Origin: Kondoa subrosea
Taxonomy: Eukaryota
Direction: 5' to 3'
Assembly (NCBI GenBank): GCA_039545335.1
Contig: BCIN01000007.1
Location: 186,001-250,000, forward strand
Length of the DNA: 64,000 nucleotides
This document shows, one piece after another, positions 16,559 through 53,104 of the stretch. Position numbers and translations under genes: made by a program. Within the stretch, counting starts at the first letter, position 1, and the number at the start of each line of letters is the position of its first letter. Below the pieces are notes generated by a model that saw only the letters and a program-made list of their open reading frames with translations, made no database searches and had not been told where the DNA came from.

Positions 16559-17986
16559 CTTGAACTGGAGAGCTTGGTATATCGCGGCTTCGAGACAAGA
16601 GTCGCGTCGAATTATACATTCGCCTGTTTTGATCCCTGTTTTGATCCCAGACGATGATCAACTGCTCCTTCTTTTGACCTGACTGCCTGTATTCCACCTC
16701 TGTGGTTTGCTACTCTCACGTTAGCTTTGCCTGATGCTTCCGTCGCAATGCCCTTGGTTCCGAAGCTTTCTTGTCATGCTCTATCAAAGTCAAATGTTTC
16801 TGAACAAGATCAGCTTTCGACGCGCTACAGGCTCTGATTCTCTATTTCAATGCTTGTTTCTGCCTTTACATGGCCAAAGGGAGACTAGAACTGCTGCTCA
16901 TCTTCATGGCCTTAGAACCCATAGCTCTGTGCATTGAGCTCGCCTTAGCTCGTCCCGAGTGGTGTCTTTGCGCTCTTTGTATCATATGGGAGGACTAATC
17001 CTGCAATGCATCTGCCGCTTCGCTCATCTTTGCTTCAAGTTCCGATTTTCGCATTTTCATCAATATTCGCAAACATCTTCTTGAATTCTATGCGCTTCTG
17101 AGATACGAGAGACGGCTTTCCAATCGTCGACAACAAAGCTACTCTATCAGAGCCTTCGGAACTTCTGCTAAGTCATATCTGATCTGCTCAGGGTAACATT
17201 CTGGGCGCTATCAAATTCGCCCTGATCGTATCTGGCACATCCTATATTGCACCGCCTAGCGGTATAGATTTCGAATGACGACGGAGGACATTTCGTGCTG
17301 CAATGATGGTGAACAAGATTCTTGGCCGGTTTCGTAGTCAGCTACAGTCAGCTGCACTCGACAACTGCCGTACGATCGACTCTTCCTTCAACGACTTCCT
17401 AGTGTCTACGAATGGTTGCACTCCATACTCTGCATTTCTACCTGATTCGCAAAATTGCGTACAAGCCTTCATGATTGCAGGTGCATTTAATGGCGAAGCC
17501 TTGGTGTGCGATGAGCTGCACAATCGCATGCGAATGGTGTCGTTGTGATTGATGTTGATGCAGATGAAATAGAATTGTGCCCTCGTACGCTTTCGATGCC
17601 CTTACTTTCAATTCTCAAGACAGCCCTTCTGCACACCAAGCGAAAATCGAAACAATCCGCCTTCATTCTGTTTTCATCACTGCCTCTTTGTGTGCTGGTT
17701 GCAGATTGTGGGTTACTCAAACAATCAGTGGACGCGCTAGGTATCTCTTGTTTGTTTACCCCGCCGAAAGCGGACTCCGGTGAAGCCAATCTATCTCCAA
17801 ATGCTCCTGGCCAAGCATATGTCTGCTGCTGTTGTCAATCATGCCACTGAAGCGGTCAAGCCATTGTCAATCAATCGAATTTTTTCCTCGTCTATCTCGC
17901 CGACATTGGTAGAGGCCAAAAACGCCTTACAGCCATCAGCTCAGCGCTGTCTAAGTGCCACACCATCCCTGGCCGTCATTCAACCG

Positions 17987-18126
17987 GGTCTTTTGGTCTA
18001 GAGGTAGTCAGTCCTCTTCTTCTCCAGCTTCCTGGGCGCATTCTGACCTCAATACAGTGATTCACCCTTAGGGATTGCCCGAGCATGATCTGGGTGAGGT
18101 CCTGGGTTCGATTCCCAGAAAGATCC
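17987..18126 (+). tRNA. tRNA-Pro(AGG) with two introns: 18007-18057 (D-loop, position 21/22, GT..AG) and 18074-18090 (canonical 37/38)
   Basis: Joined exons GGTCTTTTGGTCTAGAGGTA|TGATTCACCCTTAGGG|TGGGTGAGGTCCTGGGTTCGATTCCCAGAAAGATCC fold to a cloverleaf: acceptor GGTCTTT/AAAGATC, anticodon stem CACCC/GGGTG, anticodon AGG (18070-18072), T stem CTGGG/CCCAG. A-box TGGTCTAGAGG and B-box GGTTCGATTCC intact. Confidence 0.88.
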
Positions 18127-18767
18127 TAGGCAACTCAAGAACTGCCTCACACGTCTGCTTTCTTTTTTGGCTGCTGTAGAAAGCCATTTCTGTTTGACAC
18201 ATCTTTTTTGTTCACAAGCTTGTCCGTGTCTCACCTGAGAACCGGAACACGTCACGGCATAGCATCGCTCTGCAAGAGTTACTACCGAGTTTTCCAGACT
18301 GCTAAGAGAAGTAGCTTTGCTGGAATTCACGCTTACTTCATTTTTTGGGGCTTCCAGACTACTTTGCAGCGGATCCCCTGAATACTTAACCCACTCTTCA
18401 TCCGCTTTGCTTGCGGCATTGATCTTCAGATAGTCTCGAAGTAGACGTGAGCGAGAGATCTCTCGAGCACACAAAGCAAGAAACTTCCGTTTCCTACGGC
18501 AAGTACTGTTGACGAGTATAGGCAAGGAAGGTCGCAGAAAGAGGTATCAGCGAGACCCTGAGCCGAATATGCATTCATTGATATGTCGAGACGCTTGTTG
18601 CCTCGCCTCGCCTGGCATTTCAGCTCTGTCTCTGGTTTTTACAATCCATTGTTCCCATTCCAGTCGCTTGGAGTACTCTTTACGTACAGAATGATGTAGG
18701 AAGTGTATTGGAAGCGGCGAAAAGTTGACCACAATGACATTGAGTGTCTGCTCATGTCTCAGCGCAC
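18098..18767 (+). repeat. Direct repeat copy 1 (~670 bp), starting inside the tRNA 3' exon
   Basis: Matches 21341-22008 wherever compared by eye; ORF-track translations within the two copies are identical. Confidence 0.95.
18163..18168 (+). terminator. Putative RNA polymerase III terminator (T6)
   Basis: TTTTTT about 37 nt downstream of the tRNA 3' end. Confidence 0.5.
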
Positions 18768-19155
18768 TCGAGACAGGACGCGATAGCCTCGCTCTGCTGA
18801 ATGAGAGTCATCCCATCCAGATTCACGCTCCGAATACAGAAAACCATTCGCTTCGAGATCATAGCGTACTTTCAGTAAAGACAAATTGCAAAATGGTTCG
18901 ACCGAGAGTGTGCCTTTTGGAGGTCAATTCACATCTCGCGAAGAGAGAGCAAGGAGACATGAGCGCACAAACATCGTACATCTGCTGTTCTGACTGCATT
19001 CTCCCGATGCTAGTAGCAAATAATGGTGGAATAGGCTGATGAGGAATCTCTTTTAATGATCGCGTTCCAAGATCGAGAGGACTCCTTGCTGGAGTGATAG
19101 TGGCAGCGGCTTCATGGGCTCCGAATCTGACGTTCAGAAATTGGTGGGTCTGACT

Positions 19156-20676
19156 TCAATTACATTGGTTTCTCTTACTACCTTTGCCCTGGTCCATGTC
19201 CACAATCGTTTCGACCCAGAAAGTGCCGTCGATATCTCTGGTGATAATAGTTCTGAAGGGCTTCACTGGATAAATGACTTTAGTTTGCAATTTGTGAATT
19301 CCATTTTCCGACCATATTTTGATTTCACTTTGACTGCTTCTGCTCGTGTATTCAGGCACACCAGTAAGATCTAAGCTGAAAAGAGAAAGCTTCGGAAATA
19401 GATGACGATTGAAGATAGGTTTGATTTCTTCCAAAAGATGATACATAGTCACCCTGTTCGAGTCGTGGTAGAAATGAAATTGCAAGTCTAGAGTTCTGAG
19501 TTTGCGAAAATATGCAGAAGTATGGAATGAGATATCTCCACTGTATGCAGACCACTCCAGCGAGACTTGAATAAGATTGGGAAAGCTGACTGCCAGAAGT
19601 TGGAAGGCTTCGACCTCACATTCCCAATTCGCCATGCTCAGTCTTTCTATCCTTTCTAGTAATGATTTGCGTTCTTGATTCAGGTGCCAGAGCGCCTTCC
19701 TTGGGCGAAGATCAGCATCTTCAATTTGTAGATTATAGGCTCGGGGCAAGAAGACTAGAGCTTCAGTGACATCTAGATTCGCGTCTTCGCCGTTCGTTGT
19801 CATCCCGTTTTCTTCACACCAGATGAGTTTGCGGACCGGCAGCTGGAAGGACGTGTCCAGCTCAAGGCGTGCGCGAAGAGGCTGAAAGAGAGTAGACAAC
19901 TTGACCATTCTAAGACCAAGAGTATGCAATTGAGGCATGTCCAGTAGTAAGGTGCCGAAATAAGACCAATCGAGAGCGCCATATCCAGGAGACGAGAGAA
20001 ACAAATACGTCAATCCCGGAAAGAAAGGCAAACTTGCAAGAAGACCTGGCTCTGGTAGCGGAGCATCGTCGGCTGTCAGTGCCGCATCCTCAGCAACTGG
20101 ATCGTATACCCAATCGTACGATGGCTCGTAATCCGTCTGGAAAGTGAGACAACGAATCTTGTAGCAGGAATCAAGAAACTTGACTTGTTGTGCCAAAATA
20201 TCTTGAGCTGCTGAGATTGTCTTGACACGAGTTGCTGAGATAGTCCAGACACGATCCCGATTGCTCCAGAAATCTGTTGAATCGCCTTCCTTTGGAATGG
20301 TTAAGGCTGCTAGAAAGACTTCTTGCACCAAGTTTGCGTGTTTCTTCTCTTCCTTCAGGACTTTGACAATCGAGTACGGATCATTCTCGCAGTCTAAGGA
20401 CCCAATAGACCGATACAGGAGAGGCATAGCAAGTCCATACAAGCGGGATGAAACGAGACAGAGTGATGCGAGAGTGGAAAGCTTGCAGCGGCTCGGCAGG
20501 AGCTGAAAGATTTCCAGAAGGAGTTCGCTTGGTGGAAAGATCAAAAAGGACTGCTAGAAGATTAAGGCAAGCCAGATGAAGTCTACCTGAGGAGCATTCA
20601 CCTGATTTTGCCCAACACTTGGGCTGTTCTTTGGTCTTGCAGCCTGCAATTTAATGTCGCACATCAATGATTCCAT
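19156..20676 (-). CDS. F-box-like / LRR-type protein
   Basis: Exon 1 MESLMCD..GQNQ splices in frame to QSFLIFPPSELLLEIFQLL..LASLCLVSSRLYGLAMPLLYRSI (fungal F-box-like signature), then a ~460-codon exon with LxxLxL repeats. Confidence 0.8.
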
Positions 20677-21340: not shown

Positions 21341-22008
21341 GGTCCTGGGTTCTTCCCAGAAAGATCCTAGGCAACTCAAGAACTGCCTCACACGTCTGCT
21401 TTCTTTTTTGGCTGCTGTAGAAAGCCATTTCTGTTTGACACATCTTTTTTGTTCACAAGCTTGTCCGTGTCTCACCTGAGAACCGGAACACGTCACGGCA
21501 TAGCATCGCTCTGCAAGAGTTACTACCGAGTTTTCCAGACTGCTAAGAGAAGTAGCTTTGCTGGAATTCACGCTTACTTCATTTTTTGGGGCTTCCAGAC
21601 TACTTTGCAGCGGATCCCCTGAATACTTAACCCACTCTTCATCCGCTTTGCTTGCGGCATTGATCTTCAGATAGTCTCGAAGTAGACGTGAGCGAGAGAT
21701 CTCTCGAGCACACAAAGCAAGAAACTTCCGTTTCCTACGGCAAGTACTGTTGACGAGTATAGGCAAGGAAGGTCGCAGAAAGAGGTATCAGCGAGACCCT
21801 GAGCCGAATATGCATTCATTGATATGTCGAGACGCTTGTTGCCTCGCCTCGCCTGGCATTTCAGCTCTGTCTCTGGTTTTTACAATCCATTGTTCCCATT
21901 CCAGTCGCTTGGAGTACTCTTTACGTACAGAATGATGTAGGAAGTGTATTGGAAGCGGCGAAAAGTTGACCACAATGACATTGAGTGTCTGCTCATGTCT
22001 CAGCGCAC
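21341..22008 (+). repeat. Direct repeat copy 2; starts with a tRNA 3' fragment whose T-loop/B-box has a 2-nt deletion
   Basis: GGTCCTGGGTTC--TTCCCAGAAAGATCC versus GGTCCTGGGTTCGATTCCCAGAAAGATCC; thereafter matches copy 1 at offset 3241. Confidence 0.95.
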
Positions 22009-22136
22009 CCAAGACATAGCTGGATAGACTCATTCTGCCGGATGAGATCGAATCTCACCCTGTTCCGCGCTTGTAGCAAGGATACCATACTGATCTTCGC
22101 ATACTCTTACGTAGGGGCTAGATTCAGCAATTATCA

Positions 22137-23716: not shown

Positions 23717-26700
23717 TCAGATTGACGCCCTTCCAAGCAAAGAGACCAAAGACTAGAGCAGAATGAGTCAAAAAGTCAATGCGCCGAAATGCAAGCACCT
23801 ACATCAACATCGTCTTCTCCAAGACTGTTGGCCAATGCAGCTCTCAGTGCTCCCATATCGAGCTTGGCCATTTTTGCTAAGCTTGCAGCGATCTGCGTGC
23901 CTTGCGCTTTGGTGACTTCTGCATCAATCTTGGCAGATGCCTTTTCGACCGTCGAAACAAAGCTTCGGTCGTCTGTCGTTGCATCAACGGAACTTGCTGA
24001 ATGAAGGATATGAAGGCGATCCGATCTTGACAGAGCAGAATCCGCCGCTGCTAATCGTGCAAGGACCGACTCTTCTGCCAATCTCCTCTTTATGCGCCAG
24101 AAGAAGTACCGTCGACTCTCACTCCAGTCCAAGATATCGCGAATAGTGTTTTTAGCCTTCATCCGTACAGGTGTATCATGGAGATCTGCAAAGTGGATAG
24201 CAATTTGACTGTATGTCGACCATAGAGCCTTTTCTCGTACAGCCAATTCGGACTTTAAGGAAGTAGCTTGTTCGGCTGATATCGAAGGATCAGCTGCTCT
24301 TGATTTGATGTCTCGGTAATTTGTGTCTAAACGGTCCATCATTGCGACCATCTTGTCTTTTCTGAACTTGATTTCGACAATGCCTTCTGGTTCCAGAACA
24401 CCAGCTCTGGCTGTTCGATCAGCATACCTAAATAGAGTATCAGTACCGTGAAATGGCATCGGATAGAAGAGCTAACATTTCCATCATACCGTTCTGGTTA
24501 ATCGAGGGATCAAGAACGACCCAGGCACCACCTCGTAATTCACCGTTTGGCACAATGTAGACAAAAGCAGGTTGTTTGTAGCTCGACAGTCCGTCGACGA
24601 TCCAAGAACCTCTGAATAGGATATTAGCCACGAAGTCGCCACAGCGCCGGAAGAACTAACCGCTTGAGCACTTCATCAAACATATCCTGCTGTCCACCAG
24701 AGAAACCTCTCCAGTTGGCAAAGATGATCAGAGGGAGGCCTTCTCGGTTAAAGTCCGCGATAGCTTGTGCGGTCTTGTGAGCCGAATTTGGGTACCAAAC
24801 TTGACCAGCTTCCATGACTCGTAATTCTTGAGATACTGGGTTTGCTGGATCGGCTGGCGATGTACGCTCAATAGTTCGTGTCTCGACTGAGATGACACCC
24901 AGAGGAATACCGCCTAAGCGACCTCGACCGACAACCTGTACTGCAAATGAGATCCCGTAATCAAAAGAGGGCTTTCAAAACTTACAACTGTCTGAGCCCA
25001 GCCTGATAGGGTCTCTTGGAAAGAGCCTTTGTCAAGGAAACCACTGAGGTAAGTGCCTTCTTCCTCTTTACCAGCCAAGAACCATCTCGGATCATACGCG
25101 CCTTTCGGCGGTGTGTATTCAATTCGACGATCCCAAGAGTCAGACGAAGGAGAGATGGGCAGAGGGGCGCCACGACGTTCCGGAACATAAGAAAGCCAGT
25201 TGACAATATGAGTGACACCTTCAAGGTCGTTTCCTGCTGTAAGGTGGGAAACACCATTCTTGTACATGATTTGCGTGCCTCCGAGTTGCAGATTAGAGCT
25301 GTAGACTTCCCTTCCGAGAACCTTGTTAAGAGCACCGGCACCAGTCAGGATGATAGGTTGACCTTCTACTTGTACCGTTCTTTGACCGAGGCGGACAAGA
25401 TAGGCACCAATACCGACCGAGCGACATGCCACGAGTGTGATGGTGAAAATGTCATCGTAAGCTCTTGATGTTTCTCCGGCTATCAGACCAGATCCTCGAA
25501 GTGATTCAACACCGAGCCCATCTTGAAGACCAACGATATCGGTGATCTTGTAACGAGTTTCGCCATTAACTTCAACAGGCTCACTGACGACACTTCCTTC
25601 GCCCTTCTGTCTGAGCCTACCATAGTCTTCTGATGTAAGGTAAATGTATTGGAATCCTTTCTCTGGTCGAGCTTCGTCGTTCCAAGCTGCCTTGAACATA
25701 TCGACAACCTCATCTGCTATACCGAGACGAGCTCCCGAGTTGGCTGAGAGGTAGATACGCGGGATTCCAAGTTCGCGAGCGAGTTGAGTTACGGCAAAGA
25801 AATAATCATCTTCTGGTGGACCGAAAGAACCGATCTTAAAGGTGATATCATTGGCGATGACAATAATACGACGTCCCTTTGGATACTCAGGAGTGTAAAT
25901 TGTGAAAATCCAGCCGACCATGCCGACGTTGTTGCTACCAGGTGCCCGCGAGACTTCTTGAGGTTTGCCAAATTCATCAAGCACAAGTTCGCTTGCTGTA
26001 AGAGGATTTGATGGCCCGGGAGAAGAGCTTGATTTCCAAACTTTGCGAAGAGCTTGTCGGAAAAGGTCAGGGAAATCGTAGCAGTATGTTGTGCCGACGA
26101 CGTGTGCTTTATATCTCTTTGGTTGCAACCATTCCTTGGTTGAGTAGCGATAGCTGACTGGTTGCAAGTGAAGGGCGCCTTGAGGACCAATGGATTTGAG
26201 GATAGTTCCCTTTTCAGTCGATATTTCTCGATAAGCTTCATACTTAACATTGAAGCCGGAAACATTCTCGATTATGGCTCGAATAGGCTGCGTGCCGCCA
26301 TTCTGGTCTTCAAGAACCATTCTTATTTCGCAAGCAGTGACTCGAAGTCTCCACAACCTCTTACCGTGACGATCAATAAATCCAGCCAGAGCACGCTGAA
26401 CTTCCTCGAAATCGATTCTTAAATTGTAGACGAAGTTGATAAAGAGATGGTTAACATCAGCTGAGCGATGAGAAGCACTTGCGACTTCGAGAATGTTCAG
26501 AATATCGTTGACGAGGCGACTGAGCAAGATAATCAGAACCAAGGAAATTCCGTCAGTAATTTGAACTCACTCAGTCTCGCTGACTAAATATTCTGCAACG
26601 CTCACGCCGCCACGCAGGCGACCAGGTCGAACCAAAGCACGTACGAAGAACCGCGCATCTGCGGTGTTTTCTTTTGCTGTTGCATAGTATACATGAATCT

Positions 26701-29700: not shown

Positions 29701-31068
29701 GAAAGAGTCCGTAGCAGCTTCATACAAGAATCTGCTCACATCATCAGAGCTTAACTTTATAAACGCCCAGGCAGACAAACTCAGTAGTACCAGCTGATAC
29801 ATAGCCGACCAATTTGGCCAATCTCACAGCAGCCTTTTCCATCTTTTCGAATGTTGGCGCTTTGGCGATAGTGACCGGAGCTTCTTCAATAATCTTTTGA
29901 TGACGACGCTGAACAGAGCAATCACGTCCAAAGAGAGAAATAGCATTGCCGTATTGATCAGCTAGGACTTGTACTTCCAAATGTCTTGCTGCTCCAGCGA
30001 GCTTCATGATGAAAACAGGTGAGCCTGATTCACATTTTAGTAATGATCCACCTTCATGAACGAGTTACATACCTGGAACTTCACCAAGTACAGCGTTGAA
30101 AGATTGTTGGAAAGCTTCTTTGCTTTCCACTTTCCTAATACCTTTACCTCCACCGCCTTCAGAAGCTTTGATCATGACTGGCCAACCAATGTTTTCAGCT
30201 CTTTCCAATCCTTGCTCCCAGCTCTTGACGCAAGCTCGATCATAAGCTTCTTGAGGGACTTCCAAGAATCCACCTTGGCCAACCATGGTATCTTCAATTC
30301 CAGTTCCAGACCAAGCCATACAAGGTACATCCGCATGCTGAGCTACAATAGTGGAAGAGATCTTGTCTCCTAGAGAACGCATAGCTGAACCCGGGGGACC
30401 GATGAAGACGATTTTGTGTTTCGATGCATGAAGGGATTCAGGTAGACGAGGGTTTTCAGAAGCATGGCCCCTGCATAGAATCAATGAGAGACAGTCTTGA
30501 AGCAGGAACATGAGACTTGCCATCCAGCCCATACTGCATGTACACCGGTCCTTTCAGCAACATCGACAATTACATCCACATTGGCATAATTGTTGTTGTT
30601 GGTTCCTCCTGGTACTTCGACGTATTGATCGGCCATGCGAATATAATCGGCATTGACTCTGTGCGGAACCCGACAAGTAAGCACTGAACAGCGCAAAAGT
30701 ACATTGGGTCAAACGCACTTGAGATCTTCGGGAGTGGCCATGACAGTGAATTCAATAGCTCTTTCGTTCCCAAACGTTTCATAAGCCCATTTCCTAACTG
30801 ATCGGATCTCCTTCACAGCTGCTATTCCATTATTTGCAATCAAGACTTTGGTAATGACAGTGTGACCGCCTCGAGTGCGGACGAAATCAGCTACTCTAGA
30901 TGCTGGAGCTGTTGAAAGATCATTGCCGCCTAGTCCACACACAATTTAGCATTCTGTTATAATGCCAGCGAGGACATTCATGCGCATACCGATAAAATGT
31001 TGTACTTTTGAATGGTCTGGCTTGTCTTCCATTGCAGGAGAGGCAGAAGCAGAAGTAGAGGCTGCCAT
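23717..31068 (-). CDS. ACC1: Acetyl-CoA carboxylase
   Basis: BC domain ([37 protein letters not shown]), biotin site (E)VMKM, CT domains ([42 protein letters not shown]). Confidence 0.98.

Positions 31069-51140: not shown

Positions 51141-53104
<1,964 letters not shown>

Follow-up and report, generated by a model that had tools for sequence, protein, structure and literature searches.

Introduction

Spliceosomal introns are known from several small non-coding RNA genes. In the sections of a review of U6 that we draw on here (PMC5855946), the Pol III-transcribed U6 gene of fission yeast contains an intron that the spliceosome excises. The same sections describe fungal U6 genes with up to four such introns, which have splice signals in common and are otherwise unconserved, and whose spliceosomal removal is assumed. 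They also report that Rhodotorula hasegawae has introns in its U1, U2 and U5 genes. The primary sources for these U6, U1, U2 and U5 introns, cited here via PMC5855946, are Tani and Ohshima (1989, 1991), Takahashi et al. (1993, 1996) and Canzler et al. (2016). Within those sections, spliceosomal introns are named in U6, U2, U5, U1 and rRNA genes only. The review further gives 30-90 bp as the normal spacing from the A box to the B box in tRNA genes, and about 200 bp for a working yeast U6 gene.

Textbooks and recent papers keep spliceosomal and tRNA introns as separate classes with separate substrates. For instance, the excerpt of a 2025 paper used here separates spliceosomal, tRNA and XBP1 introns into three types without relation to one another (PMC12530127). 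Non-canonical tRNA introns have been described by Soma et al. (2007, 2013) and Kawach et al. (2005), cited here via the portion of PMC4090602 that was available. A full-text literature search, with subscription journals mostly outside its coverage, returned no spliceosomal intron in a tRNA gene, and a prior description is possible.

Here we analyze a tRNA-Pro gene in a stretch of 64,000 nucleotides (the window, by which we mean the whole stretch of DNA that was analyzed). An earlier note on this DNA had claimed that the gene carries a spliceosomal-type intron in its D-loop in addition to a normal tRNA intron.

Results

A tRNA-Pro(AGG) gene with two interruptions

A 72-nt tRNA-Pro(AGG) can be read from positions 17987-18126 (+) of the window only after two pieces are excised, a 51-nt insert in the D-loop and a 17-nt intron at position 37/38. 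The features of the locus are listed below. All coordinates that the earlier note gave hold.

17987..18006 (+): exon 1, 20 nt; 5' strand of the acceptor stem, positions 8-9, 5' strand of the D-stem, and D-loop to A21; the A box lies inside (17994-18004)
18007..18057 (+): D-loop insert, spliceosomal-type by sequence, 51 nt, at tRNA positions 21/22; GTCAGT at 18007-18012, CTGAC at 18043-18047, CAG at 18055-18057
18058..18073 (+): exon 2, 16 nt; 3' strand of the D-stem, 5' strand of the anticodon stem, and anticodon loop to G37 (18073); AGG at 18070-18072
18074..18090 (+): canonical tRNA intron, 17 nt, site 37/38; no GT, AG or branch motif
18091..18126 (+): exon 3, 36 nt; position 38, 3' strand of the anticodon stem, variable loop, T arm, 3' strand of the acceptor stem, and C73; B box at 18105-18115
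18160..18168 (+): Pol III terminator-like T run, TTCTTTTTT; T6 at 18163-18168, 37 nt past the tRNA end
21341..21367 (+): orphan tRNA 3' end, 27 nt, variable loop to C73; 2-nt deletion in the T-loop; heads the second copy of a repeat

In the joined tRNA, the acceptor stem pairs at 7/7 positions and the anticodon stem at 5/5, both the A and B boxes are intact, and the T6 run follows downstream. With all stems paired after removal, both internal boxes and a downstream T run, the locus has the makeup of a putative type-2 Pol III tRNA gene. The two boxes are about 100 nt apart, and the longest T run within the insert is 2. When the 51 nt were excised, ARAGORN called a tRNA-Pro(AGG) with a 17-nt intron; when both pieces were excised, it called an intron-free tRNA-Pro(AGG). 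The second piece is an ordinary 37/38 intron, as had been claimed: it is 17 nt long and without splice-site motifs, and position 32 can pair with intron position -3 (the anticodon-intron pair).

The genomic form behaves differently in standard searches. ARAGORN in its default (bacterial) mode reported 0 tRNA genes over the whole 64-kb window. Rfam reported nothing at the gathering score, and a tRNA match was absent even at E<=10. In intron mode, ARAGORN miscalled the locus (17986-18127) as a tRNA-Arg(CCT) with a 48-nt intron. The prediction that standard tRNA scanners could miss this gene is thus borne out, and failure of standard tRNA models on the genomic form is expected if the insert is real. 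The tRNA-Pro(AGG) is the sole tRNA gene in the 64 kb. As a side observation, the tRNA-Arg(CCT) miscall means that automatic annotation of such genomes could bear a wrong tRNA identity, not a gap.

On the opposite strand, the gene for a DNA primase small subunit lies to one side of the tRNA gene and an F-box-like gene to the other. Elsewhere in the window, an acetyl-CoA carboxylase fragment (24914-26566, -) is at most 78% identical to named proteins, and its best named matches are all from Pucciniomycotina, mostly Microbotryomycetes, which places the host within or close to that subphylum of basidiomycetes. Rhodotorula hasegawae is a Pucciniomycotina yeast.

The tRNA gene overlaps a 709-bp direct repeat (18098-18806 and 21341-22047, 98% identical). 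On its left, the repeat begins within the tRNA where the variable loop starts (18098), so the second copy opens with the orphan tRNA 3' end. The F-box-like gene (19156-20553, -) sits between the two copies. We compared the locus with two DNA runs from one sample, which are possibly the source of the assembly itself. Contigs of both runs span 17960-18141 in one piece, with 0 differences and at single-copy depth, and the repeat is at about twice that depth. When both runs were searched with 17960-18150 at 80% likeness, the locus and the second repeat copy were the only matches, without joints or a paralogue; because the exons are short, this search is weak on uninterrupted paralogues.

The D-loop insert resembles local mRNA introns

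The 51-nt insert has the attributes of a putative U2-type GT-AG intron: GTNNGT at its first base, CTRAY shortly before YAG, and a length within the local class. Its branch-like CTGAC places A18046 at 11 nt from the 3' CAG end. For the local intron lengths, a related carboxylase protein was aligned to the window and the gaps between aligned blocks were measured. The acetyl-CoA carboxylase gene has 8 such gaps, and 5 of them are 47-50 nt long with GT or GC starts, branch-like motifs and YAG ends. An intron of this gene at about 30470-30520 (-) seems to open with GCAAGT and may be a GC-AG intron.

We also scanned the window for an intron-like signature, defined as GTNNGT followed, within a total length of 40-75 nt, by a CTRAY that lies 8-16 nt before YAG. 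The + strand gave 15 candidates and the - strand 21; in 30 trials with Markov-1 random sequence, the mean per strand was 7.3 and the maximum 14. The lengths of the 36 candidates concentrate at 47-54 nt, and GTCAGT opens five of them, the tRNA insert counted in. A length of 51 nt and a branch A at 11 nt from the end put the insert in the middle of the local intron class. The random rate of the signature is ~7 per 64000 positions per strand under the Markov-1 model, or ~1e-4 per start position. A chance match at exactly the bases that restore the D-arm is thus very unlikely, and requiring an exact end lowers the odds further.

These results agree with the earlier description of the insert as spliceosomal-type (GT-branch-AG), because its donor, branch distance and length are like those of local mRNA introns, and because same-site GT...AG inserts occur in related genes (see below). 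The two GTCAGT donors that had been pointed out at 51209 and 54221 are present. The claimed likeness in length to local mRNA introns also stands, with 51 nt against 47-50 nt for the carboxylase gaps and a candidate peak at 47-54 nt.

Depletion of T runs as a mark of Pol III constraint was non-discriminating, since T5 or more occurs in merely 1 of the 36 local candidates. An introner-like family would consist of many near-identical copies, and there is no second copy of the insert within the window. A search for copies at 80% likeness in the 18.8-Mb contig sets of the two runs matched its own contig alone, at a sensitivity that is uncertain for 51 nt.

Related tRNA genes in metagenome contigs

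Metagenome contigs were scanned with a 19-mer pattern consisting of the D-loop head of the tRNA exon followed by a GTNNGT start; neither the AG end nor the branch motif was imposed. The pattern matched at least 113 metagenome loci, each taken as 619 nt. Running ARAGORN in intron mode over all possible insert ends gave a tRNA for almost any end, and we therefore used an explicit screen that required a T arm and, after it, the complement of the seven bases that precede the match. Among the matches listed (at least 113), 13 loci pass this screen. Six of the 13 are uninterrupted tRNA-like heads of 71-75 nt that belong to a repeat family. The other seven (L013, L026, L041, L015, L025, L039 and L089) have an insert of 50-112 nt at the identical site, and L013, L026 and L041 are one gene seen three times. 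A relaxed screen returned 19 rows and added L006. Among the matches listed, eight loci thus represent six distinct complete tRNA genes with an insert at the same D-loop site:

L013/L026/L041: tRNA-Pro(TGG), D-loop insert of 112 nt
L015: tRNA-Pro(TGG), D-loop insert of 79 nt
L025: tRNA-Pro(TGG), D-loop insert of 52 nt
L039:186-326 (-): tRNA-Ala(CGC), D-loop insert of 50 nt
L089:183-326 (-): tRNA-Ala(CGC), D-loop insert of 52 nt
L006:294-555 (+): tRNA-Pro(CGG), D-loop insert of 50 nt

When the inserts are excised, each of the six becomes a 72-nt tRNA with an acceptor stem paired at 7/7 and a T5-T8 run at most 40 nt downstream. A canonical 37/38 intron is also present in four of the six. The two genes L039 and L089 have the anticodon CGC, G3:U70 and A73, which are alanine identity marks, and their D-arm, variable loop and T arm resemble those of the proline tRNAs here. 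They may represent a shift of anticodon and identity in an intron-bearing Pro-type gene.

Eleven rows of the relaxed screen (L003, L010, L017, L020, L045, L046, L067, L075, L076, L098 and L103) were set aside by eye. Ten of these have no T-arm plus acceptor by the explicit screen, and the other, L067, is an uninterrupted SINE-type tRNA-like sequence. Many loci, including L002, L003, L005 and L007-L010, come from one metagenome and combine a tRNA-like head with a conserved tail; they look like an unrelated family of animal or plant tRNA-derived SINEs. In the 300-nt flanks of the metagenome loci, stop-free stretches did not appear coding-like by eye.

The same 19-mer pattern matched 35 loci in 596 Gb of prokaryote genomes and 7 loci in viral contigs, with no complete tRNA in either set. 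A separate metagenome scan with a variable gap gave 0 matches, which is a false negative because L025 fits its pattern; negatives from gapped scans thus call for caution.

A tRNA gene with four interruptions

L006 is the strongest single case. This tRNA-Pro(CGG) gene is 262 nt long and is divided into five exons of 20, 16, 9, 14 and 13 nt. It is interrupted at four sites: at 21/22 by an insert of 50 nt, at 37/38 by a canonical intron of 34 nt, in the variable loop (46/47) by an insert of 54 nt, and in the T-loop (60/61) by an insert of 52 nt. The variable-loop insert reads GTATGT...TAG, with CTAAT 11 nt from its end; the T-loop insert reads GTAAGA...CAG, with CTGAT 9 nt from its end, and it splits off the last two bases of the B box. 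These two inserts were in no way selected by the search. ARAGORN calls the joined product a tRNA-Pro(CGG), and a T8 run lies 14 nt downstream.

Two intron classes in seven genes

Taking the window gene together with the six metagenome genes, all nine non-canonical inserts begin with GT and all nine end with AG. The GT start was imposed by the search in six of the nine, so the free tests of the start are the window insert and the two further L006 inserts; no AG end was imposed on any. All nine also contain YTNAY, the A of which lies 9-12 nt from the 3' end, and seven contain the stricter CTRAY. Six of the nine are 50-54 nt long. By comparison, none of the canonical introns (n=5) starts with GT, ends with AG or contains the branch motif.

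Stems were compared in six genes, with L006 left out. In this comparison, 120 of 126 stem cells pair, and the six exceptions are all the conserved T13/T22 position. Double compensatory changes were found at 13 of the 21 stem pairs. The D-loop inserts of the same six genes are only 35-69% alike in global alignment, as raw percentages, and by eye their bodies have no common sequence beyond the splice signals. Exons that stay intact while co-varying, conserved splice signals and drifting intron bodies are as expected of a spliced functional gene, and not of a decaying pseudogene.

The inserts score at chance for a bulge-helix-bulge motif

A strict bulge-helix-bulge (BHB) motif has a 4-bp central helix, two 3-nt bulges that hold the cuts, and outer helices on the flanks. 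We scored this geometry at the productive junction, with exon positions -5..-2 and intron positions n-5..n-2 forming the central helix and a maximum score of 10. The window insert scored 5/10 (H 2/4, h' 2/3, h 1/3), which is the chance level; shuffled inserts had a mean score of 4.06 with an sd of 1.28. All nine GT-AG inserts of the seven genes scored 4-6 of 10, and the outer helix was 1/3 in each. The canonical introns scored 7-8 of 10, the 17-nt intron of the window gene having a score of 7. Position 32 can pair with intron position -3 in the canonical introns of the window gene, L025, L039 and L089 (4/4 tested).

The earlier note had offered the BHB as a competing model, on the grounds that the window insert forms half of such a motif. 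The pairings of 18001-18004 with 18047-18050 and of 18008-18011 with 18043-18046 are indeed in the sequence (one bulge and two helices), and a cut guided by them would come 5 nt too early, as that note had also said. The model itself did not withstand the scoring: the strict motif is not formed at the junction that restores the D-loop (5/10 versus a shuffled mean of 4.06). It had also been proposed to check in related genes whether GT, branch and AG are kept or the BHB pairing. The AG end and the branch motif are present in all of them, and the half-BHB is not conserved among them.

Discussion

We consider it probable that the locus is a working tRNA gene with one spliceosomal intron and one intron for the tRNA splicing endonuclease (TSEN); we infer the splicing itself from sequence features. 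The gene would be the nuclear tRNA-Pro(AGG) of a Pucciniomycotina-like basidiomycete, with two introns of different kinds in its precursor. Pol III would start from the intact A and B boxes (~100 nt apart) and end at the T run. The 51-nt insert at 21/22 would be a U2-type GT-AG intron, and the spliceosome would remove it from a Pol III transcript, as it does in fission-yeast U6. This nuclear step would probably precede the other, since the D-arm can form only once the insert has been removed. At 37/38, the ordinary endonuclease-ligase pathway would then follow, with the tRNA splicing endonuclease excising the 17-nt intron and tRNA ligase joining the ends. The order is not forced, since the precursor is predicted to fold with its acceptor stem, T arm and anticodon-intron helix in place. 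The insert may have originated by reverse splicing into a tRNA, or it may have been inherited from an older intron-bearing tRNA-Pro gene.

Some observations speak against this reading. The A-to-B spacing of ~100 nt exceeds the 30-90 bp given as normal for tRNA genes in the available sections of PMC5855946, and the terminator lies 37 nt downstream. The T-loop insert of L006 splits the B box, the window insert does form a half-BHB, and a non-spliceosomal route has precedent. Such a route would make the insert a true tRNA intron that is excised, much as in red algae and nucleomorphs, by a nuclease outside the spliceosome (the tRNA splicing endonuclease or another one), and its GT-AG look would be incidental. 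Non-canonical introns in D and T arms are indeed known from Cyanidioschyzon merolae, where they depend on the BHB, and from nucleomorphs (PMC4090602, as excerpted), and introns at 20/21 of the D-loop and 58/59 of the T-loop of Chondrus crispus tRNAs have been validated by RT-PCR, according to the part of a preprint used here (10.1101/2021.12.21.473619). One bulge and two BHB helices can also be formed by the window insert. Against this, the strict BHB is at chance in all nine inserts with an outer helix of 1/3 in each, and the other genes do not conserve the half-BHB of the window insert. AG ends with branch motifs 9-12 nt upstream occur in 9/9 inserts and in 0/5 canonical introns, and the length of 50-54 nt in 6/9 inserts is that of local mRNA introns. 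We regard removal by a non-spliceosomal nuclease as unlikely on this evidence.

It is quite unlikely, in our assessment, that the gene is dead, with intron-like DNA having landed in the D-loop of a tRNA-Pro and no mature tRNA coming from the locus. Short insertions in the D and T arms of eukaryotic tRNA genes are generally taken as pseudogenes (PMC4090602, in the portion available), and the DNA around the locus is rearranged, an orphan copy of the gene's 3' end lying 3.2 kb off. However, all stems, both promoter boxes and the terminator are intact, and the same design recurs in six other distinct genes, in which the stems co-varied while the splice signals stayed. The orphan copy, moreover, has already lost 2 nt of the T-loop, a loss that the full gene does not have. 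An assembly or chimera artefact, in which the 51 nt would not truly lie within the gene, has next to no plausibility. Nothing specific points to it, except that the runs covering the region may be the assembly's own source. The contigs of two runs from one sample span 17960-18141 unbroken, without differences and at single-copy depth, and independent metagenome contigs have the same architecture.

The preferred reading of the window gene, a tRNA gene spliced by both systems, can be extended to other genomes. The same arrangement in other uncultured eukaryotes suggests that some tRNAs may need the spliceosome to mature. We lean towards the broader proposal that in several eukaryote lineages spliceosomal introns recur in tRNA genes and are inherited there, with up to three per gene beside an intron of the endonuclease type. 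If so, these organisms would rely on the spliceosome, acting on transcripts of Pol III, for part of their tRNAs. Two splicing machineries that are regarded as unrelated would process one 72-nt RNA in succession, and the current tRNA gene catalogues of such genomes would have systematic gaps.

If true, the reading of the window gene has consequences of its own. It would mean that tRNA precursors can have the spliceosome recruited to them, and the precedent set by U6 would then cover an RNA without a link to the catalytic centre of the spliceosome. That bears on whether such introns originate by reverse splicing into abundant RNAs or otherwise. The gene would also be a tractable test case for the order of processing steps. 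Lastly, tRNA scanners would miss or misname such genes (here, Pro was called Arg), with possible false gaps in decoding tables.

Comparison with known systems

As far as the available parts of the cited sources describe them, the fungal U6 genes, and with them the U1, U2 and U5 genes of R. hasegawae, are alike to the window gene in having a GT-AG intron with a branch site inside a small structured non-coding RNA gene. Fungal U6 is similar also in being a Pol III gene with A and B boxes in which several introns are possible, unconserved outside the splice signals. In contrast to U6, U1, U2 and U5, the host here is a tRNA and not a component of the spliceosome, and the intron coexists with an endonuclease-type intron in one transcript. 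Closeness to the catalytic centre therefore cannot explain the insertion.

Cyanidioschyzon merolae, Chondrus crispus and nucleomorphs share with the genes described here an extra intron in the D-loop (in L006 also in the T-loop and the variable loop), sometimes beside a 37/38 intron, and genes that scanners miss; this likeness is drawn from the portions of the sources at hand. The C. merolae introns are BHB-dependent and the nucleomorph inserts are 3-24 nt long (PMC4090602, as excerpted), whereas here there is no BHB, and the inserts have GT-AG ends, a branch motif and the length of mRNA introns. The Chondrus sites are 20/21 and 58/59 in the part of the PlantRNA 2.0 preprint used here, versus 21/22, 46/47 and 60/61 in our genes, a comparison made by reported positions only.

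The rRNA genes of lichen-forming fungi (Bhattacharya et al. 2000, via the available sections of PMC5855946) likewise combine spliceosomal-type introns with transcription by a polymerase other than Pol II. As described there, the host is a long RNA made by Pol I, and, unlike in the window tRNA, no second splicing system acts on the same transcript. Compared with the canonical eukaryotic 37/38 intron, the piece at 18074-18090 is an ordinary member, and the 51-nt insert at 21/22 is not of that kind. Spliceosomal introns in small non-coding RNA genes are thus known; what would be new here is a putative spliceosomal-type intron in a tRNA, beside a tRNA-type intron.
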